From Escherichia phage JSE, in the sequence record EU863408: a stretch of DNA of 64,000 nt. One strand, written 5' to 3'. The notes under the pieces were generated by a model. It searched no databases. It was not told the origin of the DNA and saw nothing but the letters and a program-made list of their open reading frames with translations. A program made the position numbers and the translations under genes. Below, piece after piece: positions 20,229 through 36,407 of the stretch (its first letter is position 1; every line of letters starts with the position of its first letter).

Positions 20229-20243
20229 AATATAAACCTCTCA

Positions 20244-20603: not shown

Positions 20604-20610
20604 ATATTCC

Positions 20611-21201: not shown

Positions 21202-21287
21202 TAATTTCTCCTGTTTGGCTTAACTTTCTGATTCCATAATATAGCCCTATCACCAGAAAGTCAAGCATTATTTTTAACCAATTTCCA

Positions 21288-21710: not shown

Positions 21711-21714
21711 TTTA

Positions 21715-22050: not shown

Positions 22051-22081
22051 TTTAATACTCCTTTGTTGTTTCGATGGGGGT

Positions 22082-22110
22082 ATATTACTACCCCCGATCA
22101 TGTGTGTCAA
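22082..22110 (-). promoter_or_regulatory. Early promoter cassette TTGACA-17-TAATAT inside GGGGGTA/TACCCCC palindrome
   Basis: Minus-strand read. Confidence 0.6.
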
Positions 22111-22372
22111 CTACTTTTTCAAGATTTTTTTTGATTGCATTCCAAAGACCTTTATTTCCAGGTTGTTTTGGTTCTTCGATCAGTGTCCATGTTCGACCGT
22201 CTAAGTGTGCACAATTTTTAAGGCAAATAAAAATCTGGTGTCCCTTATCAGCACGGATATAACCACTATTCGCAAATCTTTCATGTGGTGTATATTCATA
22301 CAGTGTATTAGGTGTAATATACTTGCGGTTACTATAAGGTGTCATCACATACATCATGGTACTAACTCCCAA
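22088..22372 (-). CDS. Paralog family B protein (94 aa)
   Basis: NCAHLDGRTWTL motif. Confidence 0.4.
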   Translation of the reverse strand: MGVSTMMYVMTPYSNRKYITPNTLYEYTPHERFANSGYIRADKGHQIFICLKNCAHLDGRTWTLIEEPKQPGNKGLWNAIKKNLEKVVDTHDRG

Positions 22373-22548
22373 CGATCACCGCGAAGATGAGAACATCCAC
22401 CATCAAGAAGTATCGTAATACGATAACCTATATCATCTTTGATGTAACCGATTGTCGGTGGATTTTCGTCGTCTCGTGCCGGGGTAAAATCATACATCTT
22501 TCCGGGCGTAATATCTTGTCCTTTATTGCTATTGGTATAAACTTGCAT
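22354..22548 (-). CDS. Paralog family B protein (64 aa)
   Basis: DGGCSHLRGDRWEL motif. Confidence 0.4.
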   Translation of the reverse strand: MQVYTNSNKGQDITPGKMYDFTPARDDENPPTIGYIKDDIGYRITILLDGGCSHLRGDRWELVP

Positions 22549-22569
22549 TTTCTTAATCTCCTATATTAA

Positions 22570-23268
22570 CTAACCACGGGTATAGTGTTCCAGAACAACG
22601 GTCAGATGAATATATTCTAATAGATCTTTCCAAAAGTCAACATCTGGTTCTTCCGGCATACCGTTTTTCTTTGCCTCTTCACGCGCGAGTTTAACACGCT
22701 CGTAGAGATCTTTCAATTCTTCCCGCACATTATCAAAGGTTCTTTCTCCTAACTTACACGCTAAAATAGAAGAACGTCGCGCGAGCGGGAATTGTAGATC
22801 ACCTGTCTGATAGATTTCAAGTAGCTGATAACCAACACGCAGAGCATGAGAAAGATCTTTCCAGTTACTGAAATACTTTTCAGATTTGGCTACCTGCTTT
22901 TTGAGATAGCCAGACAAACCCCACATACCAACATGATAGAATTTATCTCGATGTGTTCGGATGTATTCCCATTCTCTGGAGGATTCAACCAACATGTTAC
23001 TAGGCGCGTGCACCATATCAATAGCGCCGATATCGCCTTTACATGCCAGATTGATAAACCGTTTTAGACTGAACATATTAACGTCAATATCGTCTTTGGT
23101 GTTCTTGATCCCTTGACCGCTAGTGCTTTGATCATAGTGTTCTTTCATCGATCCTAAGATAATTTCTTTCGCAGTCGGAACAAAGATACCACGATAATCT
23201 TTATCGGAATTTTCAGTATCAAGGCCGTATAAGTGAGATCCGAAGACCATTTTAACCATTGTATGCAT
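22570..23268 (-). CDS. Pol-beta superfamily nucleotidyltransferase (232 aa) with C-terminal helical domain
   Basis: FGSHLYGLDTENSDKD matches GS-x10-DxD nucleotidyltransferase signature, third acidic DDIDV; GAGGGT RBS. Confidence 0.6.
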   Translation of the reverse strand: MHTMVKMVFGSHLYGLDTENSDKDYRGIFVPTAKEIILGSMKEHYDQSTSGQGIKNTKDDIDVNMFSLKRFINLACKGDIGAIDMVHAPSNMLVESSREWEYIRTHRDKFYHVGMWGLSGYLKKQVAKSEKYFSNWKDLSHALRVGYQLLEIYQTGDLQFPLARRSSILACKLGERTFDNVREELKDLYERVKLAREEAKKNGMPEEPDVDFWKDLLEYIHLTVVLEHYTRG

Positions 23269-23281
23269 AATTAAACCCTCA

Positions 23282-23812
23282 TTAGTATTTTACGTTACGT
23301 CGAACGCCTTTTCGAATCTGACAAATAGCAGACGGTGAAACATTATATTTTCTTGCAAGTTCTACACCCTTCATATGGGGAGAAGATAAAATCTCTTCCA
23401 CTTGGTCGTCGGTAAGTTTTGCGTTTCCGTGGTTCTCTCCCCAATTTTTGTTTAATCCTTCTTCCTTCGCATGAACAAGATTTCGGGTATCTGTCGTCCA
23501 TTCAAGATTATAAAGGTCATAGTTTTGTTTGTTTCCATCCTTATGATTAACTACACGGTAGTTATTTGGATTCGGAATAAACGCAACCGCCATAGCTTTA
23601 TGCATGTTCACGGTTTTTCTAAATCCATCCGGCTTATAACATACTGTAAATTTAGAATAACCAGTTTTACCATAAACACTAATATAATTTCCGGTCTCCG
23701 TATTTCTAACCCTACCATGAGAGCTAATCTCAAATTGAGTGTAGGGCAACAGCGCATCAATCACTTTCCATTCTTCGACAGGATGGTCATCACAATATCT
23801 TTTAATCATCAT
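23282..23812 (-). CDS. Free-standing HNH homing endonuclease with C-terminal HTH
   Basis: FIPNPNNYRVVNHKDGNKQNYDLYNLEWTT HNH motif; C-terminal LTDDQVEEIL...ARKYNVSPSAICQIRKG helix-turn-helix. Confidence 0.8.
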   Translation of the reverse strand: MMIKRYCDDHPVEEWKVIDALLPYTQFEISSHGRVRNTETGNYISVYGKTGYSKFTVCYKPDGFRKTVNMHKAMAVAFIPNPNNYRVVNHKDGNKQNYDLYNLEWTTDTRNLVHAKEEGLNKNWGENHGNAKLTDDQVEEILSSPHMKGVELARKYNVSPSAICQIRKGVRRNVKY

Positions 23813-23830
23813 ATCACCTCATAAAAATAA

Positions 23831-23852
23831 AGCCAACCCTTTCGGATTGGCT
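23831..23852 (-). terminator. Terminator after grcA (AGCCAAUCC-GAAA-GGGUUGGCU + U-rich tail)
   Basis: GNRA hairpin with wobble, followed by UUAUUUUUAU. Confidence 0.6.
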
Positions 23853-23859
23853 TAAAAAT

Positions 23860-24276
23860 TTACATTGCTTCCGTAAAGGTGCGCGAAATAACGTCACGTT
23901 GTTGGTCTGGAGTCAGACTATTGAATCTTACGGCATATCCGCTAACGCGAATGGTTAGTTGCGGATACTTATCAGGATTAGCAACCGCATCGAGAAGAAG
24001 ATCGCGACTCATAACATTGATATTAGCGTGCTGACCACCTTCGACAACCGGAGCACCATTATCTACAATCACCGGACGGAAGCTAGTTGTGTGCAGTGCC
24101 AGAGAATCGACGTCTTCTGCGGTGATCACATGGTCTTCTGCGAAAGTTTTACTAACAATTACTTTAGCGCCGATCAGTGCTTTCGGTTCGGATACCAGAA
24201 TCATAGGCGCGAAGTGTCCACCAATAATAGTACCTTTATGCTCACCTTTCATGATTTGAATTGCTTTAAATTCCAT
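23860..24276 (-). CDS. grcA: Autonomous glycyl radical cofactor GrcA (YfiD-like)
   Basis: C-terminal GGQHANINV...[36 protein letters not shown] nearly matches E. coli GrcA as recalled (RVSGYAV glycyl-radical loop); AAGAGGTGA RBS. Confidence 0.9.
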
Positions 24277-24411
24277 AATTCACCTCTTATAGATCAGGAC
24301 GTTCGTCATTAATTTTACCAACCAAAACACCATAGAGTTTATCAGGTTGGACTTTACGATTCTTTTTAATTGTAGCACGGAATCGACGAGCTACGCTATC
24401 TTTATTTTTCA

Positions 24412-24897
24412 TTAGTTGATACCTAAGCCAATGAAAATAGGTTGGTCTTCTACATTACCCATCCCAACACTAAGTCGATTCAATTCTAAAAACTGCAATA
24501 CGCTGTCAGTAAATCCGCGCATGGTAGTATCTAGGATAAAAATTGTTTTGTCAAGACTACGACCTCGCCATGTGATCGGATTCAGGAAAGTTCGGATAGA
24601 TGTACAATCTACATCTGAAATATTTACATTTTCACCGCGACCGCGATCTCGGATCGTTTTGGCATGTTCCCGCGTCGTTGAAACGATAAAGACACTATAG
24701 CCTTTTCGCGTATAATGGTCATATAACTTGATTGTAGCGTCTGTATGCCCTGTCTGACGGCCTAAATTGATTGAGACGATGGAATCTAGGTCATCAGCAA
24801 AATTGCGTCGCTTACGGCGTTCTATGATGCCATTTACGGCAGATACACACGCAGCATAAATCAAATCTTTACTTTCTAATTTTACATCAATATTCAT
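24412..24897 (-). CDS. Hypothetical protein (161 aa), possible degenerate P-loop (GRQTGHT)
   Basis: ORF with GGAGAC RBS; weak P-loop-like and hhhhD motifs only. Confidence 0.4.
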   Translation of the reverse strand: MNIDVKLESKDLIYAACVSAVNGIIERRKRRNFADDLDSIVSINLGRQTGHTDATIKLYDHYTRKGYSVFIVSTTREHAKTIRDRGRGENVNISDVDCTSIRTFLNPITWRGRSLDKTIFILDTTMRGFTDSVLQFLELNRLSVGMGNVEDQPIFIGLGIN

Positions 24898-24959
24898 GGT
24901 AAAGTCTCCAGTGAACGGGGAGAGATCCTTAGATTGTCTCCCCGTTGATGGTTAATATT

Positions 24960-25535
24960 TTATTTTGGATCTGGGAAATTCAATAGAGCATATTCTCCAT
25001 AAAATTTCCTAGCTGCATTATCATAAGCGATTGCAGCTTCGATTTCTGTGTCATATTGTCCAAGAACATGTCTTTGTAGGTTGACCATTATACTAGCTCT
25101 CCATTTCTTACGCAAATCCTTCCTGTTACACTTACTAACACCCTTATACACACTAGAAAACTTTTTAGACTTCTTCTTTCTATTATGTTGATTTTGCGCG
25201 TCGGTTGCCTCCCTAAGATTTGGAGGATTGTTATTAGCAGGATTACCGTCAATATGATCAATTAATCTAACTTGCGTCCCATGTTCTAGAAACCAAACAA
25301 CCCTATGCACGAATAGATGAACTCTAGGAAGACCGTCATCTCTACTATGCCAAAATCTAAGATGACCATCTTTATTTGTTCTGACTTTAACTAAATCGCC
25401 GTGTTTATATCTACTCCCTAATGGTCGTCCTTTGATAGCTTTACTATCGACTCTATAATATAAGATACCCTCTATATGAGCATATCTAAGTTTTATCTCG
25501 TTTTGTAGGGATTCATCCCAATATTTAAAAGCCAT
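24960..25535 (-). CDS. HNH endonuclease fused to AP2 DNA-binding domain
   Basis: HRVVWFLEHG...IDHIDGNPANNNPPNLREAT HNH motif and C-terminal YKGVSK...WRASI...YDNAARKFYGEYA AP2-like segment. Confidence 0.75.
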   Translation of the reverse strand: MAFKYWDESLQNEIKLRYAHIEGILYYRVDSKAIKGRPLGSRYKHGDLVKVRTNKDGHLRFWHSRDDGLPRVHLFVHRVVWFLEHGTQVRLIDHIDGNPANNNPPNLREATDAQNQHNRKKKSKKFSSVYKGVSKCNRKDLRKKWRASIMVNLQRHVLGQYDTEIEAAIAYDNAARKFYGEYALLNFPDPK

Positions 25536-25580
25536 TTTATAATCCTCACAAAGCCAGCGATTAAGCTGGCTTTATTTTAG

Positions 25581-25970
25581 TTATACCGGGTCTGGATATA
25601 CCTTTTTATCGAGTTCCATATGCGGTCCGTCTTTAAAAGTAACCCAATCAACACCGCAGATAACAGGAACACCCAATTCTCGACCAGCTTGTTTAAATGC
25701 ATCAGCGATCATACGGTAGTATTTCATGTTCCATGTATCCTTATCTTTCGGATACGCTACAACGTCAACCGCGAAACCGTGAAGATGACGAGATTTCATA
25801 GTCTTAGATTTACCTTCCGCAACATATTTCTTTTGCGTTTCTAGACTACGTACACCTTCCGTAATACCAAAATCGACCGGAGTCAGTTCTAACGCACGAT
25901 GAACGACTTTTACCAGGTCTGGATGCACACCAACAAGCCGATCTTTGCTTCTTTGAGATAATTTAAACAT
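25581..25970 (-). CDS. Endolysin, L-alanyl-D-glutamate peptidase (peptidase M15, T5-endolysin type)
   Basis: SRHLHGFAVD and DGPHMEL zinc-site motifs and N-terminal HRALELTPVDFGITEG resemble phage T5 endolysin as recalled; GGGGGTGA RBS. Confidence 0.85.
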   Translation of the reverse strand: MFKLSQRSKDRLVGVHPDLVKVVHRALELTPVDFGITEGVRSLETQKKYVAEGKSKTMKSRHLHGFAVDVVAYPKDKDTWNMKYYRMIADAFKQAGRELGVPVICGVDWVTFKDGPHMELDKKVYPDPV

Positions 25971-25998
25971 TATTCACCCCCTTTGTGAGTGATAATAT

Positions 25999-26190
25999 TT
26001 AGATCCCGGCGATCCTGCATAGAGTTCTTGTATTAGCACCAATAAGGATAGCATTAACGACAACCATTCCCCAATCAACCCACTGATTATTATAAATGCT
26101 AAATCCGTTTGCTAGGCCAAATACAAGCATTCCGGTACACATACTCAGAGCAATAATCAACATCACGGTAAAACCAAATGCAAATCTCAT
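25999..26190 (-). CDS. Small membrane protein (63 aa)
   Basis: Hydrophobic ORF immediately upstream of endolysin. Confidence 0.4.
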   Translation of the reverse strand: MRFAFGFTVMLIIALSMCTGMLVFGLANGFSIYNNQWVDWGMVVVNAILIGANTRTLCRIAGI

Positions 26191-26191
26191 A

Positions 26192-26458
26192 TTATTTTCC
26201 TTTTCTCTGTTTACGTTTATAAAAGTAATACATTACCTCATCGCGTCCGGTGATCCAACATGCTAGGGCGGTAAACAGGTTTACAATTCCCAACACACCT
26301 ACTGACGCGGCGCTGTCAACAGACATAGGAACAGTAAAGGCCATAGCTAACATAGCAACGCCACAAATGACATTAAGCACCATTATAATAAGACCGAAGA
26401 AAACCATTGTCAATCCTCCGACACAAGAAAACCAACAATCACGCCAGTGATAAGACAT
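26192..26458 (-). CDS. Small membrane protein (<=88 aa)
   Basis: Hydrophobic ORF; start probably internal. Confidence 0.35.
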   Translation of the reverse strand: MSYHWRDCWFSCVGGLTMVFFGLIIMVLNVICGVAMLAMAFTVPMSVDSAASVGVLGIVNLFTALACWITGRDEVMYYFYKRKQRKGK

Positions 26459-26601
26459 GATGCGCCGCTAATCAGACAACCCGCACCAAGTGATTCCCAC
26501 CAGATCAGAGAAGCGACAATAACACAGAATCCCCATACTACCGCAATCACAACATAGGCAAGGGTCGCCCAAAACATATATTTGTTCATAATAAATCCCA
26601 T
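26410..26601 (-). CDS. Small membrane protein (63 aa)
   Basis: Two TM-like segments. Confidence 0.4.
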   Translation of the reverse strand: MGFIMNKYMFWATLAYVVIAVVWGFCVIVASLIWWESLGAGCLISGASCLITGVIVGFLVSED

Positions 26602-26774
26602 TCACCAAACAAATAAGAAAAAAGCCATATCAACAGAAACGAGGCAATTGATCCGGCAAGCAAAATGATATTAGAGAATCCGCCGTCTATCCAGGCGACA
26701 AAACAGAATACGCCAGTATAGAAGCATAAACCAATTACAAAGCATACTATAAGCAACCATAGATAAAACGCCAT
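26586..26774 (-). CDS. Small membrane protein (62 aa)
   Basis: GGAGGG RBS; two TM-like segments. Confidence 0.4.
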   Translation of the reverse strand: MAFYLWLLIVCFVIGLCFYTGVFCFVAWIDGGFSNIILLAGSIASFLLIWLFSYLFGEWDLL

Positions 26775-26835
26775 AGAAAGCCCTCCATCGAGATAAATTA
26801 GTGCGGGTAGTACATTACCCTACCCGCATTGTTAA

Positions 26836-26994
26836 TCATCGCAGAGCGTGTTCTAGAACGATTCCACACCAACCGCTAACCACACCCAAACACACAGCAA
26901 CAAGCAGATTCATTCGGTCTTTTGGAATCATCGCAAACAGAACAACACCCACACAGAAAGCCATTACCATTGAAGTTAACATTTGTTCAACCAT
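26836..26994 (-). CDS. Small membrane protein (52 aa), not in ORF track
   Basis: ATG 26994 with AAAGGTG RBS (TGATAATG overlap with upstream stop); translation MVEQMLTSMVMAFCVGVVLFAMIPKDRMNLLVAVCLGVVSGWCGIVLEHALR. Confidence 0.4.
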   Translation of the reverse strand: MVEQMLTSMVMAFCVGVVLFAMIPKDRMNLLVAVCLGVVSGWCGIVLEHALR

Positions 26995-26996
26995 TA

Positions 26997-27335
26997 TCAC
27001 ACCTTTAAAGTCATAGACGCATAAACATTAATGTCAGGCCAGTTAGGTTCGCAATTATACTCAACATCCCACAAATAAAGCGGTTTAGATGTATCAGCCA
27101 AGTTTTTAAAATCTTCTACCCACATTTCAAGGCTATATGATGGATAAACTAGGCTATCATATCCGCCGTAACGTTGGCCTACTGGTCGGTCAGTAAAAAC
27201 TACCTCAAGATCCGGTAATTCTTTTTCAAGGATAACCGCCAGCGCATAAATCAGACGGTCTTCCTTGTTACGCTGCCGAAGGACCGTTGTCAGTGGGTTT
27301 TTCTGGTTCACTAGCAAGCACCTCCACATTTTCAC
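26997..27335 (-). CDS. Hypothetical protein (<=112 aa)
   Basis: ORF; 5' end overlaps upstream gene. Confidence 0.35.
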   Translation of the reverse strand: MKMWRCLLVNQKNPLTTVLRQRNKEDRLIYALAVILEKELPDLEVVFTDRPVGQRYGGYDSLVYPSYSLEMWVEDFKNLADTSKPLYLWDVEYNCEPNWPDINVYASMTLKV

Positions 27336-27588
27336 AGAATGAAATTTTCACAGACACAATTTTACCATAAGTGAAGAATGAATATACATTATCGAGATAT
27401 TCAACGTCACCTACAATCACATCAAACTGCGGATCAGCAACCGCCGCAACATATTCTACCAGTTCATCAAGAGAATGCAACTTAATTTCATCAATTCGGC
27501 TGTATTTGGTTGCATCTTTGATTTTAAAACCACGTTCTTTCAGCTTATCAATTAGAATTTCACGCGGAGTTTCAAACAGTTTGCTCAT
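27268..27588 (-). CDS. Hypothetical acidic protein (106 aa)
   Basis: ATG 27588 with GAGGATTATATT leader. Confidence 0.45.
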   Translation of the reverse strand: MSKLFETPREILIDKLKERGFKIKDATKYSRIDEIKLHSLDELVEYVAAVADPQFDVIVGDVEYLDNVYSFFTYGKIVSVKISFCENVEVLASEPEKPTDNGPSAA

Positions 27589-27610
27589 AATATAATCCTC
27601 ACATAGTTAA

Positions 27611-27805
27611 TCAATGGTCAATAATCTTGCACATTATAACAGAAAGAACAAAGACCGCAACCCACATATAGATCCCAGCAATCAATGCAATTTCAATATC
27701 ACAATATCCAAGATATACAACAGGAATAAAAACAAACATACAGACCAGCGCAAAGAAACTAGCAAAGACGCTAGAAAATCCGATAGCAGTATTAGTAATA
27801 TTCAT
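27611..27805 (-). CDS. Small membrane protein (64 aa)
   Basis: Hydrophobic ORF. Confidence 0.4.
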   Translation of the reverse strand: MNITNTAIGFSSVFASFFALVCMFVFIPVVYLGYCDIEIALIAGIYMWVAVFVLSVIMCKIIDH

Positions 27806-27806
27806 A

Positions 27807-27989
27807 TTAACAATCCTCGCGGCTTAAGTCAACAGCAATTGCATACAGCATAATGAATATGCTAGCCGATCCGAGAATCAATGCACCCTCACATTTTGAA
27901 ACTCGCTCATCAAAATGTAACATTATCCATCCGAGGATGTTAAAGGCGCAGACCGCGCCTATGTTCGCTAACCAATTAATCTTTTTCAT
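27807..27989 (-). CDS. Small membrane protein (60 aa)
   Basis: Hydrophobic ORF. Confidence 0.4.
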   Translation of the reverse strand: MKKINWLANIGAVCAFNILGWIMLHFDERVSKCEGALILGSASIFIMLYAIAVDLSREDC

Positions 27990-27997
27990 AATATACC

Positions 27998-28324
27998 TTA
28001 GAAAGAAACAGTTTTCAAGAAATCCAGATTTTTAGTACCGAAAACAGAAAAGTAGTGTTTTCCTTTTTCGGTTTTAGAGAAAGCGATTGTCTTCTCTACA
28101 TGGTGACGGAAGCCAGACAGACGATCACCCAGGTCAAGGCGGCAAGCGTAAGTAGTGCCGTTTTCGAAAGTAACCTCGATTTGAGTTTTGTCATATTCGC
28201 TTTCATAGGCTTTTGCTGCCGCTTCCTGTGCTTTACGCTCGAAGTCTTCGAAGTGGAATACTTCGTTTGCGTTAGCGAATACAGAAGATTCAGAGAAGAT
28301 AACTTTAACAGATACTGGTTTCAT
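27998..28324 (-). CDS. Hypothetical protein (108 aa)
   Basis: ATG 28324 after promoter cassette and conserved leader. Confidence 0.45.
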   Translation of the reverse strand: MKPVSVKVIFSESSVFANANEVFHFEDFERKAQEAAAKAYESEYDKTQIEVTFENGTTYACRLDLGDRLSGFRHHVEKTIAFSKTEKGKHYFSVFGTKNLDFLKTVSF

Positions 28325-28367
28325 TTTGATACTCCTTAGTAGTTCGTGTTTCGTTTCGATGGGTGTA

Positions 28368-28395
28368 TTATGCTATACACCCTCTCTCGTGTCAA
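28368..28395 (-). promoter_or_regulatory. Early promoter cassette TTGACA-16-CATAAT inside GGGTGTAT/ATACACCC palindrome
   Basis: Minus-strand read; leader ACACCCATCGAAACGAAACAC. Confidence 0.6.
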
Positions 28396-28402
28396 CAACT
28401 TT

Positions 28403-28591
28403 TTAGTCTTTTTTCATAATTTCTAGAGCAGTTTCTACAGCACCTTTCCAACCTTCCCACATAATGGACATAGTAAGGAAGTTAAAGCACCCGCAGGAAT
28501 CAACCTTTTTAGAGATAAACCATTCTACAAACGCTTCGCTCATACCATGCTCTTTAGCGGATTCGCGTAATTGTTCAATTTGGTCTTCCAT
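28403..28591 (-). CDS. Hypothetical small protein (62 aa)
   Basis: ORF. Confidence 0.35.
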   Translation of the reverse strand: MEDQIEQLRESAKEHGMSEAFVEWFISKKVDSCGCFNFLTMSIMWEGWKGAVETALEIMKKD

Positions 28592-28613
28592 AGTATCACC
28601 TCAACACTTAACG

Positions 28614-28808
28614 TTATTCAAACTCAAACGGTCTATTCATCCTATTGTAAAAGTACATATAACAAGCATAGTTATGTTTTGGTTGTACCGTATCAGATAG
28701 ACACGCTTTTACAGCCTCGCGGTCCGATGGGTCTACACCCTCAGCTTTAAGTAATGCTAAAATCTGGTTATAGCGTACTCTTAGTTGTACTAATGGTTTA
28801 TCCCCCAT
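28614..28808 (-). CDS. Hypothetical small protein (64 aa)
   Basis: ORF. Confidence 0.35.
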   Translation of the reverse strand: MGDKPLVQLRVRYNQILALLKAEGVDPSDREAVKACLSDTVQPKHNYACYMYFYNRMNRPFEFE

Positions 28809-28817
28809 ATTACCCCC

Positions 28818-29039
28818 TTATAGTTGATCAGCGATGTAAGCGTGACAAGCGCGGAGTTTCATTAATGCACTACCTTTCACTTCGCCTACGATGTTCATAA
28901 CTTCTAAGCGGTCGGATGGATTCATCTTAGAGCACCAGATCTGGTTAGCCAATTCCAGTTTACTCATATTTGGTTCCATCTCAAACAGTTCACGCTCAAA
29001 GTCGATAATTTCTTTTGCTGCGTCTTTAAAGTTAATCAT
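28818..29039 (-). CDS. Hypothetical small protein (73 aa)
   Basis: ATG 29039 after promoter cassette. Confidence 0.4.
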   Translation of the reverse strand: MINFKDAAKEIIDFERELFEMEPNMSKLELANQIWCSKMNPSDRLEVMNIVGEVKGSALMKLRACHAYIADQL

Positions 29040-29068
29040 TTTGATTCTCCCGTTTCGTTGATGGTTGT

Positions 29069-29097
29069 ATTGTAGGGGAGTTATCCTCCCCTGTCAA
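29069..29097 (-). promoter_or_regulatory. Early promoter cassette TTGACA-17-TACAAT with palindromic spacer GGGGAGGATAACTCCCC
   Basis: Minus-strand read. Confidence 0.6.
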
Positions 29098-29105
29098 CAC
29101 TTTTA

Positions 29106-29291
29106 TCAGAAATATGCAATATAGTTTGCCAGTCCGACAGAGTCATCATTCGGCATTGCTTTTACTGCCAGTTCAAACCCTGCTTCAACTTTCTGTTTAG
29201 CGGATTCTTCGTTATAACCCCAGATTACCAGAATAGCTACTACGTTTTCTTTGCTTACTGCTTTCAGTGCTTTAGTGATGCGACGTGCCAT
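29106..29291 (-). CDS. Hypothetical small protein (61 aa)
   Basis: ATG 29291 after promoter cassette and conserved leader. Confidence 0.4.
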   Translation of the reverse strand: MARRITKALKAVSKENVVAILVIWGYNEESAKQKVEAGFELAVKAMPNDDSVGLANYIAYF

Positions 29292-29337
29292 AATTTGATT
29301 CTCCGTTTAAGAAAGTGTGTTTCGTTTCGATGGGTGT

Positions 29338-29366
29338 ATTATGCTATAGGCCGGATCTGGTGTCAA
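29338..29366 (-). promoter_or_regulatory. Early promoter cassette TTGACA-17-CATAAT with A/T-rich upstream region
   Basis: Minus-strand read; leader ACACCCATCGAAACGAAACACAC. Confidence 0.6.
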
Positions 29367-29395
29367 CAACTTTTTTTAAAAAAAATTTTTAGGCA

Positions 29396-29421
29396 ATAAA
29401 AAAGCCACTCCGAAGAGTGGC
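29396..29421 (-). terminator. Rho-independent terminator (GCCACUC-UUCG-GAGUGGC + UUUUUU)
   Basis: 7 bp perfect stem, UUCG loop, U6 tail on minus strand. Confidence 0.75.
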
Positions 29422-29570
29422 TTATAGGGAAGGTAGCGAATCTTCCTTGTCTCCAACCTGCTAGCGGCCTAGCAAGTGAATGCTTTAGCGTACCGGATCG
29501 CCCATACGCTGCAATAAATGCGGCTAGGTGACGTCCAAATCATTCTAACCGCGCTGTCTTTAGTTCACTA
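29422..29570 (-). ncRNA. Candidate structured non-coding RNA / long structured 3' UTR
   Basis: 149 nt with no ORF of >=60 aa between a stop codon and a strong terminator; at least four predicted hairpins (GCGGUUAG/CUAGCCGC, AGCGUA/UACGCU, UGCUAG/CUAGCA, GGAAG/CUUCC). Confidence 0.3.
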
Positions 29571-29789
29571 TTATTTATATCGCTTTCTCTCGCGACGTTT
29601 TTGATCTTCTTCCTTGATAGAGTTAAATGCATCAAAAAGACACATGACACTAATAATAAACATAACCGTATTTTCTACGATATCCCACGGCTTCGCATCA
29701 GTACAGATCCCCCAAACGGTAAGAAATGCAAATAGTGCAGAAGAGATCACAAGCATGATACTTGCTAAGATATAAAAAGTCATTTTCAT
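29571..29789 (-). CDS. Small membrane protein (72 aa)
   Basis: Hydrophobic ORF, basic C-terminus. Confidence 0.4.
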   Translation of the reverse strand: MKMTFYILASIMLVISSALFAFLTVWGICTDAKPWDIVENTVMFIISVMCLFDAFNSIKEEDQKRRERKRYK

Positions 29790-29980
29790 GGTTTTACCTC
29801 AATTCTTCGATATTCATCACACATCCACGCAGTAAGCAAGAATCCTAACACATAAGCAACAAAATACGTTAATGCTTCTTCTGGTTCTGTGCTGTGTATC
29901 ATCATTAAACCAGCTAGAACGGTCTTAACAATTACATTTAAAATAATTAGCCACGCAAATAATTTCATCGTTTGCCCCAT
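29786..29980 (-). CDS. Small membrane protein (64 aa)
   Basis: Hydrophobic ORF. Confidence 0.4.
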   Translation of the reverse strand: MGQTMKLFAWLIILNVIVKTVLAGLMMIHSTEPEEALTYFVAYVLGFLLTAWMCDEYRRIEVKP

Positions 29981-30204
29981 TTCGGTCGAGTCTTTTCAAA
30001 CTTATACATTCCGTAACAATCTCGAATCATCCACGTAACAAGAGCACCAGTCAACACAGACAATACACAGAAGAAGTAAAACGGTCCAGTTGCATTATCA
30101 ACATGAGCAAGCCATGTAAAGAAAACACATGCTAAGAATGTAAAGAACATCATAAAACACAAGAAAGCAAAATATTTTATGCTACTCATAGCGCCACCAT
30201 ACAA
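29965..30204 (-). CDS. Small membrane protein (79 aa)
   Basis: Hydrophobic ORF. Confidence 0.4.
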   Translation of the reverse strand: MYGGAMSSIKYFAFLCFMMFFTFLACVFFTWLAHVDNATGPFYFFCVLSVLTGALVTWMIRDCYGMYKFEKTRPKWGKR

Positions 30205-30292
30205 CAGATCATAAGAAAACCCAACGCAATAAGAATTGCATCAAATTTAGTGAACTCAGGTCCACCTATCAACATCATTCGTTCCTGTTCAT

Positions 30293-30490
30293 TCATAGAT
30301 CACAGAGCCATCTTACAGCACCACATAAAGCGATCAAAAGACTAGGTATAAACGAGATTACAACAAGTTTACAAAAATCATCTAAGGTAACACCGGAATA
30401 GCTACCTACTGTAACAACACCGATCATCAGACACAGAAAGAAAACAAATGCAATCAGAAACAAAGTATTGCTAAACAGTTTAGTGATCAT
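30293..30490 (-). CDS. Small membrane protein (65 aa)
   Basis: Hydrophobic ORF. Confidence 0.4.
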   Translation of the reverse strand: MITKLFSNTLFLIAFVFFLCLMIGVVTVGSYSGVTLDDFCKLVVISFIPSLLIALCGAVRWLCDL

Positions 30491-30684
30491 TAGACACCCC
30501 CACGACGATCAATTTCAAAAACTTTTTTACCATCAACGAAGCATGTCACAACTGCCTCGTTGACTTCCGCAAATTGTTGTGTCACCCACTTAAGGTCAGA
30601 GCGAAACAATGTTCTATTAATAACAAATGTTTTACCGCTCTTATCCTTACCCATAAATTTTGCTTTAACCATATCCAATTCCAT
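30490..30684 (-). CDS. Hypothetical small protein (64 aa)
   Basis: ORF. Confidence 0.35.
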   Translation of the reverse strand: MELDMVKAKFMGKDKSGKTFVINRTLFRSDLKWVTQQFAEVNEAVVTCFVDGKKVFEIDRRGGV

Positions 30685-30693
30685 ATTATCACC

Positions 30694-30852
30694 TTATTTG
30701 CTAATCGCTAAACCCAATCCGAAGAGAGCACCCGATGCTACAGTATACCCGAAAGTTTCAAATGCAGTAAAGATATCTAAGCCACCAGCTAACAGAGTTG
30801 CAGTAAACAGAGTACCAGCTACGAACATAAAAGTTTTACCGATAAATTTCAT
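30694..30852 (-). CDS. Small membrane protein (52 aa), not in ORF track
   Basis: ATG 30852 directly after promoter cassette and GGAGAATCAAA leader; translation MKFIGKTFMFVAGTLFTATLLAGGLDIFTAFETFGYTVASGALFGLGLAISK. Confidence 0.45.
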   Translation of the reverse strand: MKFIGKTFMFVAGTLFTATLLAGGLDIFTAFETFGYTVASGALFGLGLAISK

Positions 30853-30883
30853 TTTGATTCTCCTTTCGTTTGTTTGTGGGGGT

Positions 30884-30912
30884 ATCTTACTACCCCCGTT
30901 TCATGTTGTCAA
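30884..30912 (-). promoter_or_regulatory. Early promoter cassette TTGACA-17-TAAGAT inside GGGGGTA/TACCCCC palindrome
   Basis: Minus-strand read. Confidence 0.6.
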
Positions 30913-30918
30913 CTGTTT

Positions 30919-31293
30919 TTAAGAAAATTTTACTTCGTCTACAATGTCTTTCATGACATTGATTTCCATTCCGGTCAGAACACGTTGGAACATGTGCTGC
31001 ACATACGCTTTCAGGTATTCATTTGATGGCTTGCTATCGAAAGTCTTTTTAGTGTAGTAGTCATCACCGAAAGCTACTGTAATTACATTTTCGTCGTCGT
31101 TCCAAGCGATATAAGCAAATTTGCCGTTATCCCAGAAGCGAGCACTAATTGCTACTTTTGTTGAATCGAATCCTACTTCGCTGTGAGATTCAAGAACTAC
31201 TTGCGTACCAGTTTCTTTATGAATGTAGTAGCGGGATACTAAGTCAAAGTTACGGGTGTAGTGACATTCGAATTTATCTTTAAACATCATCAT
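30919..31293 (-). CDS. Hypothetical protein (~125 aa)
   Basis: ATG-ATG-ATG at 31293 after conserved leader; ORF-track start 31362 runs through promoter. Confidence 0.45.
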   Translation of the reverse strand: MMMFKDKFECHYTRNFDLVSRYYIHKETGTQVVLESHSEVGFDSTKVAISARFWDNGKFAYIAWNDDENVITVAFGDDYYTKKTFDSKPSNEYLKAYVQHMFQRVLTGMEINVMKDIVDEVKFS

Positions 31294-31330
31294 TTTGATT
31301 CTCCTAAGTGTGTTTCGTTTCGATATGTGC

Positions 31331-31360
31331 ATTATGCTATAGTCGTTTATGGTTGTCAAC
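31331..31360 (-). promoter_or_regulatory. Early promoter TTGACA-18-CATAAT
   Basis: Minus-strand read; leader GCACATATCGAAACGAAACACAC. Confidence 0.55.
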
Positions 31361-31365
31361 ACCTA

Positions 31366-31396
31366 AAAACAAAAAACCCCGAAAAATTTTCGGGGT
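31366..31396 (-). terminator. Rho-independent terminator after acb1 (CCCCGAAAA/UUUUCGGGG + U run)
   Basis: Palindromic GC-clamped hairpin followed by UUUUUUGUUUUU. Confidence 0.7.
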
Positions 31397-31402
31397 ATAA
31401 AA

Positions 31403-31867
31403 TTACAGTTTGGTCGTCCACTCCAGGTCTAGATCTTCGACATACTCATGAGATCGGACAATCTCTAAATCGAACTCTAGGTCAGTGCCAAATTTACGCG
31501 CACCAACATCATAAGAAAGCGTGATATGCGGTACATATTCAGGATAATCCCACGTCGCGCCTAAAGCAGTGCCGATATCGTGTCTGAATTGCATGTAGTC
31601 GCTTTCAAATGCCAACACAAGCGCATTAGTACCGGATTGAGTTTCAAACACTTTCAGATGGCATAGAGAGCCTAAAAACTTTTCACCCTCTTCTGGGATA
31701 AACGGAACATAGACACGAGAATATAAGATAGTGCTATGCAGTTTATCACGAGGAACGGCATTAGGCAGATCGTAGAACTCCTGCAATTTTTCAATGCGGT
31801 CTAGTGTATCCTCAGTGAATTTAACAGCCGCATATGTACCTTTAACGGATTCTCGAAACGGGGTCAT
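31403..31867 (-). CDS. acb1: 2H phosphoesterase, anti-CBASS protein Acb1 (T4 gene 57B position)
   Basis: Two H-x-T/S-x motifs (HSTIL, HITLS); 154 aa; immediately downstream of 57A as in T4. Confidence 0.75.
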   Translation of the reverse strand: MTPFRESVKGTYAAVKFTEDTLDRIEKLQEFYDLPNAVPRDKLHSTILYSRVYVPFIPEEGEKFLGSLCHLKVFETQSGTNALVLAFESDYMQFRHDIGTALGATWDYPEYVPHITLSYDVGARKFGTDLEFDLEIVRSHEYVEDLDLEWTTKL

Positions 31868-31869
31868 AA

Positions 31870-32130
31870 TCAAGCCTCCGTGATCAGTTCTACTTCCTCT
31901 TCTGCGTCTTCCGCTGCTTCGTCTTTAGGGAGAAGTGCTTTCACTTCTTCGACAATAGCATCAAGGGAAACAGTCCCGTTTTCGTCTGGCTGAATACCCA
32001 GAATGCGTACCAGTTCCATCAATACACGCTCACGATCTTTCAGTTGGCCTTCTAAGAATGCGGCCTTTTCTTGAGTGTCAAACAGACGTACTTTCAGGAC
32101 ATTAATCATTTGTTCATGCTGATTGGACAT
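31870..32130 (-). CDS. 57A: Tail fiber assembly chaperone gp57A
   Basis: 86 aa acidic coiled-coil protein at the T4 57A position; AGGAGA RBS. Confidence 0.65.
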   Translation of the reverse strand: MSNQHEQMINVLKVRLFDTQEKAAFLEGQLKDRERVLMELVRILGIQPDENGTVSLDAIVEEVKALLPKDEAAEDAEEEVELITEA

Positions 32131-32162
32131 ATTCACATCTCCTACTTGTTGATAACTTTTTA

Positions 32163-32819
32163 TTAAATGTTCGCGAGAATCGCGCTTTCAAATTCTTCTA
32201 ATGTACCATTATTTATGATAATGGTTTCACCGTCAATAGGCAAAATTCCTTTTTCGGTGGAGTGAGTCGATACAATACCAGTATCACGCTGAATATGCAA
32301 CACCTTAGCACCCATAGCACGCACGAGAGCAATTTCAATAGGCTGACGCACATCAACCACTACAAAATAACCTTCTTCATTTTTGCGCTTCATAAACTCA
32401 TTCACGAATAGATTACACCAATAAAGCGGATTGATCAAGTTAACCATTATATCAGTACCGAGAGTGGTTAACATGAGACGAATAGACCAGACGTTATTAT
32501 GTTTTTCGCCAATCTCATTAACGACCTTGTAAATCTCAGCCAGACGATCACAAGTAAAGGAACTACCGCCATACTTCGAATCTAGCATAAGCAGACACTG
32601 AATAAACCACTTATGCGCGGTATAGGTATCAATACCTAGATCGGCTTCTCTGTCACGCCCTAACCCGTCAAAGTCAAGATAAGTCAGACCTAAGTCTGGT
32701 TGACATTCGCACAATATTTCTTTGATCGGTGCTGCCAGTTGATAACTATGTCCATCAATGATTAACGCGGCAGTATCTTTTCCTACTCGCTTTTTACCAC
32801 AAAGTGCAATCAATTTCAT
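32163..32819 (-). CDS. 1: Deoxynucleoside monophosphate kinase gp1
   Basis: N-terminal P-loop LCGKKRVGKDT; syntenic with T4 gene 1. Confidence 0.8.
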   Translation of the reverse strand: MKLIALCGKKRVGKDTAALIIDGHSYQLAAPIKEILCECQPDLGLTYLDFDGLGRDREADLGIDTYTAHKWFIQCLLMLDSKYGGSSFTCDRLAEIYKVVNEIGEKHNNVWSIRLMLTTLGTDIMVNLINPLYWCNLFVNEFMKRKNEEGYFVVVDVRQPIEIALVRAMGAKVLHIQRDTGIVSTHSTEKGILPIDGETIIINNGTLEEFESAILANI

Positions 32820-32834
32820 TATATAAGCCTCTTA

Positions 32835-33425
32835 TTACTTTCTAAAAGCAGGGTGCATAGCTTTAATACCTTCCACCCTCTGACGATCCGCCGCCTGAAT
32901 TGCTGGGCGAGGAACGATCAGTTGACCATCACGTTCAATGCTCATTGTTTTAAAGGGAAGAATTGCAGTACACACCAGAGATTCATGCATATCATCGGTG
33001 TATGTTAACTCAAGTTCCCCCAATTGTGAACACCAACAACCATAAAAGTTAAAAGTGCACACAATGTTACGTCGTTCGTTGTCCATCATGTGAACTTGAA
33101 CGGCTTCCGGCATTGAATCCTTCCACGCAGTGGAGTTACCGTTATTGTAGTCTACTATAGAAAGCATCCATGTGTAAAGGTTTAGATAGCTTTCCAAATG
33201 CTCATCGACAATAAACCGGACTACCAACGGGTCAAACTCCACATGACTAGACGGATAATCAGCGACCGCCAAACCATATTGACCAGCAACTTGCTTAGTC
33301 GGTGGAATGGTTATAGCCGGAAGTGTAACACCTTGAGCATTTAAAGTAAAGCCTTTTGTTAGTTGTCCATCTGGAATATTGATCTGCCAGTTGCTGGGGT
33401 TAGCATAGTTAAAGAGATTAGACAT
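32835..33425 (-). CDS. 3: Tail completion/sheath stabiliser gp3
   Basis: 196 aa ORF at the T4 gene 3 position (between 1 and 2); GAGGAA RBS. Confidence 0.65.
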   Translation of the reverse strand: MSNLFNYANPSNWQINIPDGQLTKGFTLNAQGVTLPAITIPPTKQVAGQYGLAVADYPSSHVEFDPLVVRFIVDEHLESYLNLYTWMLSIVDYNNGNSTAWKDSMPEAVQVHMMDNERRNIVCTFNFYGCWCSQLGELELTYTDDMHESLVCTAILPFKTMSIERDGQLIVPRPAIQAADRQRVEGIKAMHPAFRK

Positions 33426-33615
33426 TACTGATTCCTCAAATGAAAATATTTATTAACAATTGTCGCTTTGCGACGTGCCGGAGGCACTGACTACTTTTTA
33501 ACCGAAACAAATTTTCTATTATTCTAAAGATCTTTCTTCGTTTTGGTTATGTTTTAACCAATAACTATATTTTTATACAGTAATAAATAAAACGGGTACT
33601 ATACGAGGACTTCTT

Positions 33616-33870
33616 ATGACAGAAGACATTTTGTTAAAACTCTATGATCGTCTGGATAACGAATTAGCAACATTGCGGGGTGAAGTTCTCTATTTGTCTA
33701 AATGCAATACAGATCTGCTTAAGCAGATTGCAGAAAGGGATGATCAAATAAAATCCCTTTCAGGTGCATTACGTGATCGCGACAAGGCATTAGAGATTTT
33801 ACAGCGTGTTACCAATAAGGAAGAATTAAAAGACTTCTTACATGGTTATGCTCATGCCATCGATCTATAA
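33616..33870 (+). CDS. Small coiled-coil protein (84 aa) encoded antisense to the surrounding operon
   Basis: GAGGAC RBS; heptad-rich sequence; convergent with 33901..35043 gene and sharing its terminator hairpin. Confidence 0.45.
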   Translation: MTEDILLKLYDRLDNELATLRGEVLYLSKCNTDLLKQIAERDDQIKSLSGALRDRDKALEILQRVTNKEELKDFLHGYAHAIDL

Positions 33871-33871
33871 T

Positions 33872-33894
33872 AAAAAAGCCCGTCATTGACGGGC
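33872..33894. terminator. Shared hairpin terminator between convergent genes (GCCCG...CGGGC), U6 tail on minus strand
   Basis: A6-GCCCGTCATTGACGGGC on plus; strong in minus orientation, weak in plus. Confidence 0.6.
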
Positions 33895-33900
33895 TTAATG

Positions 33901-35043
33901 TTAACTATTGATCATATCAATGACGTTTTGTAGCTCTGATATGGATAGCGTTTCTGTATATCCATCTGGCATATCTTCTTTACTAACATAGAAACCTTTA
34001 TACTTTTTCTTTATTGCACATTCCATAGAAAGAGCATCATCACCGTTATCGTATTTTTTATAAAATGTCAACTCATGACGAAATATAGATTTTGAAGATT
34101 GGTTTTGTATTCTTTTTATTAATCTGTTGTTGGTTATACCAAATTTTATAGCAACCGCAACATCTTCTTTGTATAAAGTTTGTACATAAATGTATGCAGG
34201 TTTATTCCTCTTAAATCCATGATTGCTACACATAGGGCAACCGCTATTTTTTGATACGTAGTCTCCTAAGTTTGGCGTAAATTCATGTCCGCTACTACAA
34301 CGCATTACCAATTTTGTTTTTAGCATTCCTCTATACTCACCGCCAACAAAATCAACAAATGTATCACCTTTATCAATCGCCTTATCTGTTATTTCCTTTA
34401 CTACTTGCTCAGTTGACTTCTTGTTTTTACCTGAACATAGTTTACATCTAGATCCATTAACTAAAAACGAGTGACCGGATGCAGTATATTCATGTCCATT
34501 AGGGCATTTAACTAAGATATTTCTTTCATAAAAATCTTTATAATCAGACACATAGCCAATGACTTCGTGGTCTTTTTGGTTATTCCTCATCTCTGTTAGC
34601 AACTCTTCGCTATTCCAGCGTTTACCCTTAACGCAGAGACAACCATGACCTTGATAAAGATATATAAATTTCTTAGTAAAGTTTTTGTTGCAATCAGGAC
34701 AATGCATTAGTAATTCTGTCATTTGACCTGTATATCCTTTAGGAATATCGATCAATGTGTATTTTCCGCATATTGTCTTTAATGCATCATCTATTCTTTC
34801 TTTGGTCCAGCGTAAGCGACCAGTGCATTCATGACATTTTACACCCAGTCTAAGAGTATCTAAACTAAATATAGTTGACGTATGTCCTTTATCACATTTT
34901 AACTTAAATCTAGTATCCTTTGCGTTGGTGTATTCTCCGACTAGACCATACCATTCATAACAACATGGGATATGTTCTTTTACCTTCTCTAGATATACAC
35001 CGAACGGTCTAGGAACTGAATTGGGTTTTCTTTCTTTAGTCAT
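33901..35043 (-). CDS. Putative endonuclease: four tandem zinc-ribbon repeats plus C-terminal GIY-YIG-like (T5orf172-type) domain
   Basis: Repeated C-x2-C...G-H...C-x2-C units; C-terminal KPAYIYVQTLYKEDVAVAIKFGITNNRLIKRI; inserted between genes 2 and 3. Confidence 0.5.
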   Translation of the reverse strand: MTKERKPNSVPRPFGVYLEKVKEHIPCCYEWYGLVGEYTNAKDTRFKLKCDKGHTSTIFSLDTLRLGVKCHECTGRLRWTKERIDDALKTICGKYTLIDIPKGYTGQMTELLMHCPDCNKNFTKKFIYLYQGHGCLCVKGKRWNSEELLTEMRNNQKDHEVIGYVSDYKDFYERNILVKCPNGHEYTASGHSFLVNGSRCKLCSGKNKKSTEQVVKEITDKAIDKGDTFVDFVGGEYRGMLKTKLVMRCSSGHEFTPNLGDYVSKNSGCPMCSNHGFKRNKPAYIYVQTLYKEDVAVAIKFGITNNRLIKRIQNQSSKSIFRHELTFYKKYDNGDDALSMECAIKKKYKGFYVSKEDMPDGYTETLSISELQNVIDMINS

Positions 35044-35099
35044 ATTTTTATATCCTGTAAATTAAAGCGCCGTCACCAGCGGCGCTATTTTTATAATCA

Positions 35100-35922
35100 T
35101 TAAAACAATTTCCACACCTTACGAGCATCATATTTCTTGTCTTTGCTCATAAACTGGTAGGTCGGAAGATACACAACCGTGCTCCAATCTTTTGGTGCGA
35201 TCTCAATCAGTTTTGTTTGGATGTGTCCAGGCAAATATGCTTTGATCATGTGGTCTGCGCCTCTCATACCTTTAACATCACTCCATTTAATTTTTAAACG
35301 AGTTTTATTACTAAGAGTAGGTGTACTCGCGTATTGTCGCAACAACGCTTCTAAGAACTGCTGGCGAGCTTTAGGTGGCGCATAGTGCAAGTTCAAACCT
35401 AGCATAATCTCGTTTCCCGCTTTAGATGTACCAAATCCTAGACAGATAATCAAGGGGTATCGGTCAAAGAATGGCAAAGAATCCCGATATTTTGGGTTAT
35501 ACGCATAAGTATAGATCCGTCCCACTTGTGGTTTTACTACCTGATGACCTTTTACACCATCCTTGATGGTCTTCATAAACCACTCCTGTGATTTTTCTTT
35601 AGGACGACTCTTTGATACAGCACGCATAGACGCACGAAAATCATTAATCATCATCATTGCGCGTTGCTGCTTATTGAGACCCTTTGCACCTTTCCCTTTT
35701 AGTTTTTCAACTTCTATTGCTGTTTTAATTTCGCTGGCATAACGAGACATACTTTTAGTGAAAGTCGCATAGGCTATTCCCTTAGAATCTGCAAATGCTT
35801 TAGCTGTCATGCCTTTGGCTTTTGCTTTCGCAAATTCTACACCCAATTCGACCCACTGTTTAGACTTTCGTTTTTGGGGTAGACGGCTTTTCGTCTTCTG
35901 TGATTATTTCAAATACGCTCAT
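35100..35922 (-). CDS. 2: DNA end-protector protein gp2, with apparent +1 frame discontinuity near 35871..35879
   Basis: RBS-supported ATG at 35922 (AGAGGATAATATT) opens a 20-codon frame that ends at 35860; long basic ORF continues in +1 frame from 35903; corrected length ~273 aa equals T4 gp2. Confidence 0.6.
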
Positions 35923-35933
35923 AATATTATCCT

Positions 35934-36407
35934 CTATTTGTTAAGCCCTTTAAAGCCAAACACTTTCTTTAATGCATGTTCGGTGATGATCTTAAACTCC
36001 ATGTTATGCTTTTGGCATAATTTCACGGCAGCTAACCATTTTTCAGTATTTTTTGTGTATGTCCATACTTCATGCATATATCGTTGCTTTGTCTTCGCGG
36101 TCATTCTTTTTGGCTTTTCCGGTGGCCTTGTCTCTTTAGCTGGTTTAACTTCCCATAAATGCTCCTTGCCATCATCAAACTTAACGTAAAAATCCATAAA
36201 GTATCTGTGTCTTTTTCCGTCTGTTGATGACTCATAAGGAATTACTACGGTCTCAGATCCCCATTTTGCAACTCTAGGATTGCGGTCTAGCCACTGCATG
36301 ATCCATCTTTCCCAGCTTGAACGGTATGTGATCTTACGTATATCCCCTTTATACTTTTCCTTATTCTCAGGAACATACTTGCCCTTATAAGTGTTAGATC
36401 CTCCCAT
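35934..36407 (-). CDS. 4: Head completion protein gp4
   Basis: 157 aa ORF divergent from gene 53, as T4 gene 4 (150 aa); AAGGGTG RBS. Confidence 0.65.
   Translation of the reverse strand: MGGSNTYKGKYVPENKEKYKGDIRKITYRSSWERWIMQWLDRNPRVAKWGSETVVIPYESSTDGKRHRYFMDFYVKFDDGKEHLWEVKPAKETRPPEKPKRMTAKTKQRYMHEVWTYTKNTEKWLAAVKLCQKHNMEFKIITEHALKKVFGFKGLNK

Follow-up and report, generated by a model that had tools for sequence, protein, structure and literature searches.

A putative T5orf172-type homing endonuclease gene and its foreign gene 2 flank in the Krischvirus Escherichia phage JSE

Phage genes of the T5orf172 type that carry repeated CapR, DUF723 or DUF4379 zinc domains have been described as putative homing endonucleases at recombination boundaries, and in ICP1 and other phages "nuclease genes occupy boundaries of genetic exchange" (PMC10448857). 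Odn, a T5orf172 protein, is a proven nuclease that needs a conserved Glu (PMC8263062), and zinc-dependent DNA binding is established for the CapR module (PMC8096241). Here, we analyze a stretch of 64,000 nucleotides (nt) from Escherichia phage JSE (EU863408), called the window throughout, in which a gene for a protein of 380 amino acids (aa) lies on the minus strand next to gene 2, the DNA end protector gene. With a probability that we put at about 75%, the 380-aa gene encodes a free-standing homing endonuclease of the T5orf172 branch of the GIY-YIG superfamily, with its target at the 3′ end of gene 2. An earlier reading of the same letters (the sequence-only reading) had paired it with a convergent 84-aa gene, ORF130. 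Judged from sequence comparison, its real companion is instead the adjoining foreign 3′ segment of gene 2, which that reading missed.

The window is of the Krischvirus type (RB49-like, T4-type coliphages). Over 3.7 kb around the site it is 99.6% identical to Escherichia phage vB_EcoM_G37-3 (G37-3), its annotated twin genome, and it shares 93-94% identity with RB49, Phi1 and ~55 more Krischvirus coliphages. The local gene order is 1, 3, ORF130 (plus strand), the 380-aa gene, 2, 4 and 53 (plus strand), and the coordinates are collected in Table 1. The sequence-only reading counted two extra genes between 3 and 2; this holds relative to T4, and within the phage's own genus the 380-aa gene alone is extra.

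The 380-aa protein joins an N-terminal zinc array to a C-terminal nuclease domain. Four Cys/His units (C50/H54/C70/C73, C115/C118/C135/C137, C180/H184/C200/C203 and C249/H253/C269/C272) and the C-terminal string AYIYVQTLYKEDVAVAIKFGITNN, which holds the YIYV…IKFGIT segment, are all found as the sequence-only reading had described them. Pfam recognizes the CapR homology domain (PF21817) in three stretches (46.6 bits against a cutoff of 24.2, 3.8e-12) and the DUF4379 treble-clef zinc finger (33.9 bits, cutoff 24.5, 3.7e-8), and the PHROGs match is phrog_681, "endonuclease" (2.5e-80). The Pfam T5orf172 family (PF10544) stays below its gathering score (17.3 bits, E 0.0068, cutoff 20), and among 38 homologues an E value of 0.01 or less is reached by T5orf172 in 4, by MUG113 in 5 and by GIY-YIG in 1. 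We take these sub-threshold scores to mark a divergent relative, whose membership therefore rests on fold and motif. Across the C-terminal ~105 residues, Y286, K300-F-G-x-T-N305, R311, E341, K345 and G361-Y-T-E-T365 are invariant among 38-39 aligned homologues, and they include the residues of a GIY-YIG-type motif (Y286, K300-F301-G302, R311, E341 and E364). E364, within GYTET, would be the counterpart of E75 in I-TevI and E180 in Odn. The number of zinc modules in the N-terminal part varies across the same homologues, and the Cys residues of modules 3 and 4 show little or no variation. An AlphaFold model is confident over residues 274-380 (pLDDT 94.6), and the nuclease domain adopts the GIY-YIG fold in this predicted structure. 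Zinc domains, phrog_681, motif and predicted fold together support the T5orf172/GIY-YIG-like identity that had been proposed. A profile search against PDB sequences returned no meaningful match, NCBIfam and PADLOC returned nothing, tblastn found no paralogue in the 64 kb, and an exact-sequence look-up of the window protein gave no record. Relatives are present in 558 phage records (tblastn), with 1-4 matching places per Krischvirus genome, several of them annotated "endonuclease".

Comparison with RB49 places the gene inside a mosaic block. Left of the insert the two sequences are 98-100% identical, and identity continues past the hairpin terminator that forms the left junction, up to and including the TAA at 33901..33903, a stop codon that ends gene 2 in RB49 and the endonuclease gene in the window. 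About 1.2 kb of extra DNA follows, in which the endonuclease gene is joined to a 56-nt spacer that has a hairpin of its own. The divergence then extends into gene 2: 35100..35572 has 142 mismatches to RB49 (70.0% identity), the next 363 nt have 4 (98.9%), and the last clustered mismatch, at 35575, marks a sharp break. These boundaries point to a mosaic cassette of ~1.68 kb, from about 33904 to 35575, in an RB49-like backbone. The foreign part of gene 2 keeps its frame and ends in …KVWKLF before the stop codon, as in the Shigella phage JK32, rather than in …KVWKDA, as in RB49. It is 100% identical in G37-3 and 99-100% identical in AV108 and PTE-Eco09. Among these three carriers the cassette has ~0.25% mismatches, versus ~1-3% in the flanks. 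The window's gene 3 has 1 mismatch to that of MIZ6, which lacks the endonuclease gene, and ~13 to those of the carriers AV108 and PTE-Eco09. No donor and no other close match for the gene 2 segment was found in 50,697 phage records, where the fullest match outside the three carriers is ~71% identical over 98% of the segment and 15 matches in the 80-90% identity band, not inspected, may be partial. JK32 has the most similar allele type (56-92% identity per 50-nt block, with the same end) and was rejected as the donor.

The two hairpins that bracket the insert differ in origin. The left one, on which ORF130 and the 380-aa gene converge as the sequence-only reading had it, is resident, has folding energies of -14.6 kcal/mol on one strand and -15.5 kcal/mol on the other (z = -5.4 and -5.6, respectively), and is followed by a T-run on the minus strand only. 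The one in the spacer belongs to the inserted DNA; it is terminator-like (-13.1 kcal/mol), is annotated as a terminator in G37-3, and is absent in RB49, where the gene 2 stop abuts the counterpart of the left hairpin. Compared by eye as possible duplicates of each other, the two agree at only ~17/31 positions. In JK32, identity to the window is 98.2% as far as the ORF130 terminator and 89% from gene 2 on; the junction is at locus position ~3620, and the slot has no endonuclease gene. Because identity drops there without such a gene, the ORF130 terminator is, on this alignment, a recombination boundary in its own right.

The endonuclease gene is patchily distributed, as expected of the inserted, mobile gene that the sequence-only reading saw in it. 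Only G37-3, AV108 and PTE-Eco09 carry it in GenBank, each time labeled hypothetical, among 57-62 Krischvirus records. A paralogue, Phi1 ORF130.1 (28% identity, E 2e-27, also phrog_681), fills the slot in 11 records representing 9 phages, and the slot is empty in ~41 records, so that presence and absence alternate at one fixed site with exact junctions. The carriers' insertions differ elsewhere, with an HNH gene between gene 3 and ORF130 in AV108 and an endonuclease gene between genes 4 and 53 in PTE-Eco09. A metagenomic contig (P0001) encodes a protein 98% identical to the window's, surrounded by the same gene 2 end, hairpin, ORF130 and gene 3; its neighbors, identical in kind, reveal no donor context.

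Each state of the slot goes with its own version of the gene 2 end. We compared 12 genomes, taking RB49, Makalu_002 and MIZ6 as the empty-site genomes, and found four states (empty, Phi1-, Cognac- and G37-3-type). Over the final 90 nt of gene 2, the three empty-site genomes share one sequence, the four Cognac-type carriers (Cognac, ECD7, G2248 and Skers) share another, and Phi1 and the G37-3 type each have a unique one; the 150 nt before this show 97-100% identity among the empty, Cognac-type and Phi1 classes. Carrier and empty genomes thus differ in the flank as well as in the insert, by the change in identity across 35575 and by these state-specific ends. The Phi1 and Cognac enzymes, in turn, do not differ in the nuclease domain or in zinc module 1 and are ~60% identical in modules 2-3 (aa ~96-235), and their gene 2 ends are 30% different. 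As aligned, modules have been exchanged inside the DNA-binding array, and the exchange co-varies with the last ~85 nt of gene 2.

From domain content, fold, motif residues, presence and absence, mosaic boundaries, allele linkage and the independence of ORF130, all read directly from the data, we infer cleavage activity, target location, homing and expression. The four CapR/DUF4379-type zinc modules would read a long DNA site and the C-terminal GIY-YIG-fold domain would cut nearby, as the family suggests. During mixed infection with an empty-slot relative, the cut would fall in or near the last ~85 nt of the empty-type gene 2, a placement suggested by the linkage of endonuclease alleles to gene 2 ends. 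Repair from the carrier genome would then copy the endonuclease gene together with a variable length of flanking gene 2, as the mosaic block implies, and would leave the ~1.68-kb cassette at 33904..35575 in the RB49-like backbone. The incoming gene 2 allele would still supply a working C terminus with 30% of its bases different, sparing the carrier self-cleavage, and it probably carries the changes that confer immunity to its own endonuclease. The gene is probably expressed at a low level, from late gene 4/gene 2 transcripts that read through the spacer hairpin, because the minus strand shows no sigma-70-like promoter from gene 2 to the endonuclease gene and no exact late-promoter match lies upstream; the hairpin itself probably limits such read-through. 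ORF130 is unrelated to these events, the insert merely happening to use its terminator as the left junction.

By sequence comparison, ORF130 is a real, conserved, lineage-specific resident gene that lies outside the mobile element. It is matched in 57 phage records, all of them Krischvirus-type coliphages or Shigella phages (tblastn), with at least 99% aa identity in 51 of the 57, and its 6 variable nucleotide sites across nine genomes are all synonymous. Homologues in metagenomes, 67-73% identical, keep the heptad-like pattern and occur, in unchanged orientation, where ORF130 does, flanked by genes 3 and 2 and next to an empty slot; in RB49, Makalu_002, MIZ6, JK32 and ~37 others, ORF130 and its hairpin are directly followed by gene 2. 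The family is phrog_17832, of unknown function; Pfam yields weak sub-threshold coiled-coil-type matches only, and NCBIfam only a meaningless sub-threshold match (16 bits, cutoff 90). The annotation of G37-3 makes ORF130 the sole plus-strand coding sequence over window positions 1..36407, in agreement with the sequence-only reading, which had singled it out as the only plus-strand gene of a ~36-kb block. That reading had also cast it as the partner in a mobile element and proposed the gene 2-3 interval of related phages as the place to check, with conserved core genes there as grounds for refutation; ORF130 proves genus-wide in that interval, and the role falls away by the reading's own standard.

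ORF130 and gene 3 share a divergent control region that is resident and conserved in RB49; the intergenic stretch 33426..33615 has 3-5 mismatches to RB49, Phi1, Makalu_002 or MIZ6. The paired hairpins and the late-promoter-like boxes on both strands that had been reported here are present. The hairpins, GTCGCtttGCGAC and GTGCCggaGGCAC, abut each other with 5-bp stems (-13.5 kcal/mol, z ~-2.1 to -2.5), and the lone mismatch within them, at 33481, falls in a loop. The boxes are two copies of AATAAATA that flank the intergenic region, positioned like divergent late promoters. The T4 late-promoter consensus is TATAAATA; by their likeness to it the boxes may function as late promoters, and ORF130 is probably expressed late because these divergent boxes are one base off that consensus. 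Five copies of AATAAATA occur in the 64 kb, the others at 46941, 62073 and 63446 (+), as do five copies of TATAAATA, of which none lies within 33300..35200. The placement of the two flanking copies suggests that Krischvirus may accept A as the first base of the late-promoter box.

Several points weigh against homing. As of 2023, no experiment had yet confirmed homing by T5orf172 genes, even in ICP1 (PMC10448857). The left flank is near-invariant in the genus, where co-conversion would be invisible and the cut site cannot be placed from sequence. The three carriers are 97-98% identical overall, and shared descent explains part of the distribution. JK32, finally, has the same left boundary without an endonuclease gene, which indicates that ordinary recombination at the conserved terminator can yield such mosaics. 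T4-type phages recombine very actively, and the cassette might have spread as passive cargo, by ordinary homologous recombination between co-infecting Krischviruses and without nuclease drive. Crossovers would then lie in the conserved terminator and in the conserved 5′ part of gene 2, much like the stem-loop shuffling of RB49 and phi1, where recombination at promoter/stem-loop cassettes has been invoked to explain how the two phages differ (PMC2839356). The JK32 boundary and the bracketing of the insert by two hairpins fit this well. We nevertheless consider it unlikely: the right breakpoint lies inside gene 2, at 35575, rather than at the spacer hairpin, no sigma-70-like promoter accompanies the gene, the four slot states each have their own gene 2 end in the 12 genomes, at least four neighboring slots also hold endonuclease genes, and the catalytic motif is intact. 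The PeSL cassette of RB49 and phi1 consists of a strong sigma-70-like early promoter and a stem-loop directly upstream of a mobile open reading frame (Arbiol et al. 2010); the window offers the stem-loop without the promoter, with a breakpoint within gene 2, and was rejected as an instance of it.

A domesticated relative that no longer homes is an improbable account. Such a protein could act as a sequence-specific weapon in the manner of Odn against PLE, aimed at competing phages, satellites or host DNA, or as a DNA-binding repressor in the manner of CapR; both outcomes are documented (PMC8263062; PMC8096241), and cutting a competitor's gene 2 would amount to marker exclusion from which the carrier benefits. 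CapR, however, has no nuclease domain, while here the whole nuclease motif is conserved, and Pfam found no RepA_N-type or other borrowed specificity domain in the 380-aa protein. The gene is also rare in the genus and sits in a slot with paralogue turnover, a pattern typical of selfish genes and not of useful genes that have become fixed. Far more remote still is the two-gene selfish or defense module of the sequence-only reading, in which the nuclease gene and ORF130 would move together. The two genes are adjacent and convergent on one hairpin, and ORF130 stands alone on its strand in 36 kb. Yet ORF130 occurs in 57 records and the nuclease gene in 3; it lies beside an empty slot in ~41 records and in its 67%-identical metagenomic relatives; its DNA is of the resident type (98-100% identity to RB49), the foreign block starting only past the hairpin; and neither protein matches any PADLOC model. 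The presence/absence data rule out a co-mobile unit. We thus retain the homing endonuclease with its linked gene 2 allele as the preferred reading.

Table 1 Features of the locus and of compared loci. Window coordinates, unless preceded by the handle (L) of a locus from the phage named.
Feature	Coordinates	Strand	Remarks
Gene 3	32835..33425	-	
Divergent control region, gene 3/ORF130	33447..33589	.	AATAAATA boxes and two abutting hairpins
AATAAATA box	33447..33454	-	21-26 nt upstream of start codon
Tandem hairpins GTCGCtttGCGAC, GTGCCggaGGCAC	33462..33487	.	abutting
AATAAATA box	33582..33589	+	21-26 nt upstream of start codon
ORF130, 84-aa open reading frame	33616..33870	+	resident conserved gene, Krischvirus lineage
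Shared hairpin terminator	33876..33896	.	resident; serves ORF130 (+) and the right-hand gene (gene 2 in RB49, endonuclease gene in the window)
380-aa putative endonuclease gene	33901..35043	-	N-terminal zinc array and C-terminal nuclease domain
Nuclease domain, residues 276-380	33904..34218	-	T5orf172-like, GIY-YIG fold (predicted)
Zinc-module region, residues 1-275	34219..35043	-	four CapR/DUF4379-type zinc-ribbon DNA-binding modules
Stem-loop with T-rich tail	35066..35086	-	in the 56-nt spacer from gene 2 stop to endonuclease start; inserted DNA
Gene 2, 3′ ~476 bp, foreign allele	35100..35575	-	arrived with endonuclease gene (from the mosaic pattern)
Gene 2 (DNA end protector)	35100..35922	-	
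Gene 4 (head completion protein)	35934..36407	-	
Phi1 endonuclease	L005 1601..2632		same slot as Cognac allele
Cognac endonuclease	L008 1601..2629		same slot as Phi1 allele
HNH gene, AV108	L002 1157..1690		between gene 3 and ORF130
340-aa gene, Makalu_002	L006 2549..3571	+	between genes 2 and 4
340-aa gene, Cognac	L008 3570..4592	+	between genes 2 and 4
231-aa seg-like gene, MIZ6	L007 2908..3603		between genes 4 and 53
231-aa seg-like gene, PTE-Eco09	L003 4107..4802		between genes 4 and 53

Endonuclease genes cluster between gene 3 and gene 53, a hotspot with at least four slots for them. The endonuclease genes between genes 2 and 4 and between genes 4 and 53 adjoin a divergent patch of gene 4, which is 81% identical to the window in Makalu_002 and 91% in MIZ6 and spans 36290..36402 in PTE-Eco09. 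The gene 4 protein itself matches the Pfam Tn7_TnsA-like endonuclease N-terminal domain above threshold (E 4e-21), a nuclease-like fold within the head completion protein that is also recorded for gene 4 homologues of metagenomic loci. Farther away, in the early region, a putative HNH endonuclease gene (G37_3_00099) occupies window positions 23628..24221, and the alignment of PTE-Eco09 to the window fails at ~23281..23807, so that this gene too is variable among close relatives. Window positions 28600..29000 have 87-88 mismatches per 400 nt to AV108 and PTE-Eco09, versus 1-17 in neighboring bins, and form a further small mosaic block among hypothetical early genes. Within gene 2, at position 35880 (codon ~14), the window has an extra A, reading TCTACCCC versus TCT-CCCC in G37-3, RB49 and AV108. 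It shifts the frame after codon 13 and leaves a longest intact open reading frame of 248 aa, from TTG, versus 273; it is either a sequencing or assembly error or a true defect in the DNA end protector gene.

Taken by itself, the element is ordinary, its gene already in GenBank and its family already described as putative T5orf172 homing endonucleases. What changes is the annotation, with a 380-aa homing endonuclease gene as the likely identity, ORF130 as a conserved resident, and the 3′ two-thirds of gene 2 as foreign in JSE. Empty, occupied and alternatively occupied alleles are available in E. coli phages that are easy to grow, and the target can probably be confined to ~85 nt. Tentatively, the slot between ORF130 and gene 2 may be a natural, tractable arena for T5orf172 homing, with its alleles, at least three in number (G37-3-, Phi1- and Cognac-type), and their gene 2 ends as pairs of enzyme and immune site. 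If so, it would provide the first demonstration of T5orf172 homing and a first means of working out DNA recognition by CapR-type zinc modules, and endonuclease turnover would drive the C-terminal diversification of gp2, the RecBCD-blocking protein.

Set beside known systems, the 380-aa protein shares the zinc DNA-binding module (PF21817) with CapR of PLE, which has no nuclease domain and acts as a repressor, and the T5orf172 nuclease domain with its catalytic Glu with Odn of ICP1, which targets a satellite origin via a RepA_N domain; to judge from its sequence, nothing in it points to either role. The allele of Phi1 (ORF130.1) and of Cognac, ECD7, G2248 and Skers (RefSeq "endonuclease") has the same slot, strand, architecture and phrog_681 assignment. 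It differs in its 28% aa identity, in having three rather than four clear zinc modules, in overlapping the gene 2 end by 8 nt with no spacer hairpin, and in a divergent gene 2 tract of ~75-85 nt versus ~476 nt. SegF, SegG and SegE of T4 are likewise intergenic, free-standing, located beside an essential gene and of the GIY-YIG fold. The Seg endonucleases cause marker exclusion between T-even phages, with unequal inheritance and co-conversion of flanking markers, and by analogy the mosaic and slot pattern described here would match that behavior. Unlike the 380-aa protein, Seg proteins carry the GIY-YIG domain at the N terminus and a DNA-binding part that is not a CapR-type zinc array, and their motif is GIY…YIG rather than Y…KFGxT.

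The putative T5orf172 homing endonuclease genes of vibriophage ICP1, such as gp165 and gp174, and of other phages (Barth, Dunham & Seed 2023, PMC10448857) likewise encode N-terminal repeated Cys/His zinc modules and a C-terminal nuclease, and they too are free-standing beside an essential gene, at a boundary between conserved and divergent DNA, with paralogues whose DNA-binding modules are shuffled. The window gene differs in its T4-type coliphage lineage, in a similarity that is only distant, and in a nuclease domain that misses the Pfam T5orf172 threshold. It differs, too, in that an empty site, two paralogous occupants and linked target-side alleles are all available in cultivable E. coli phages.

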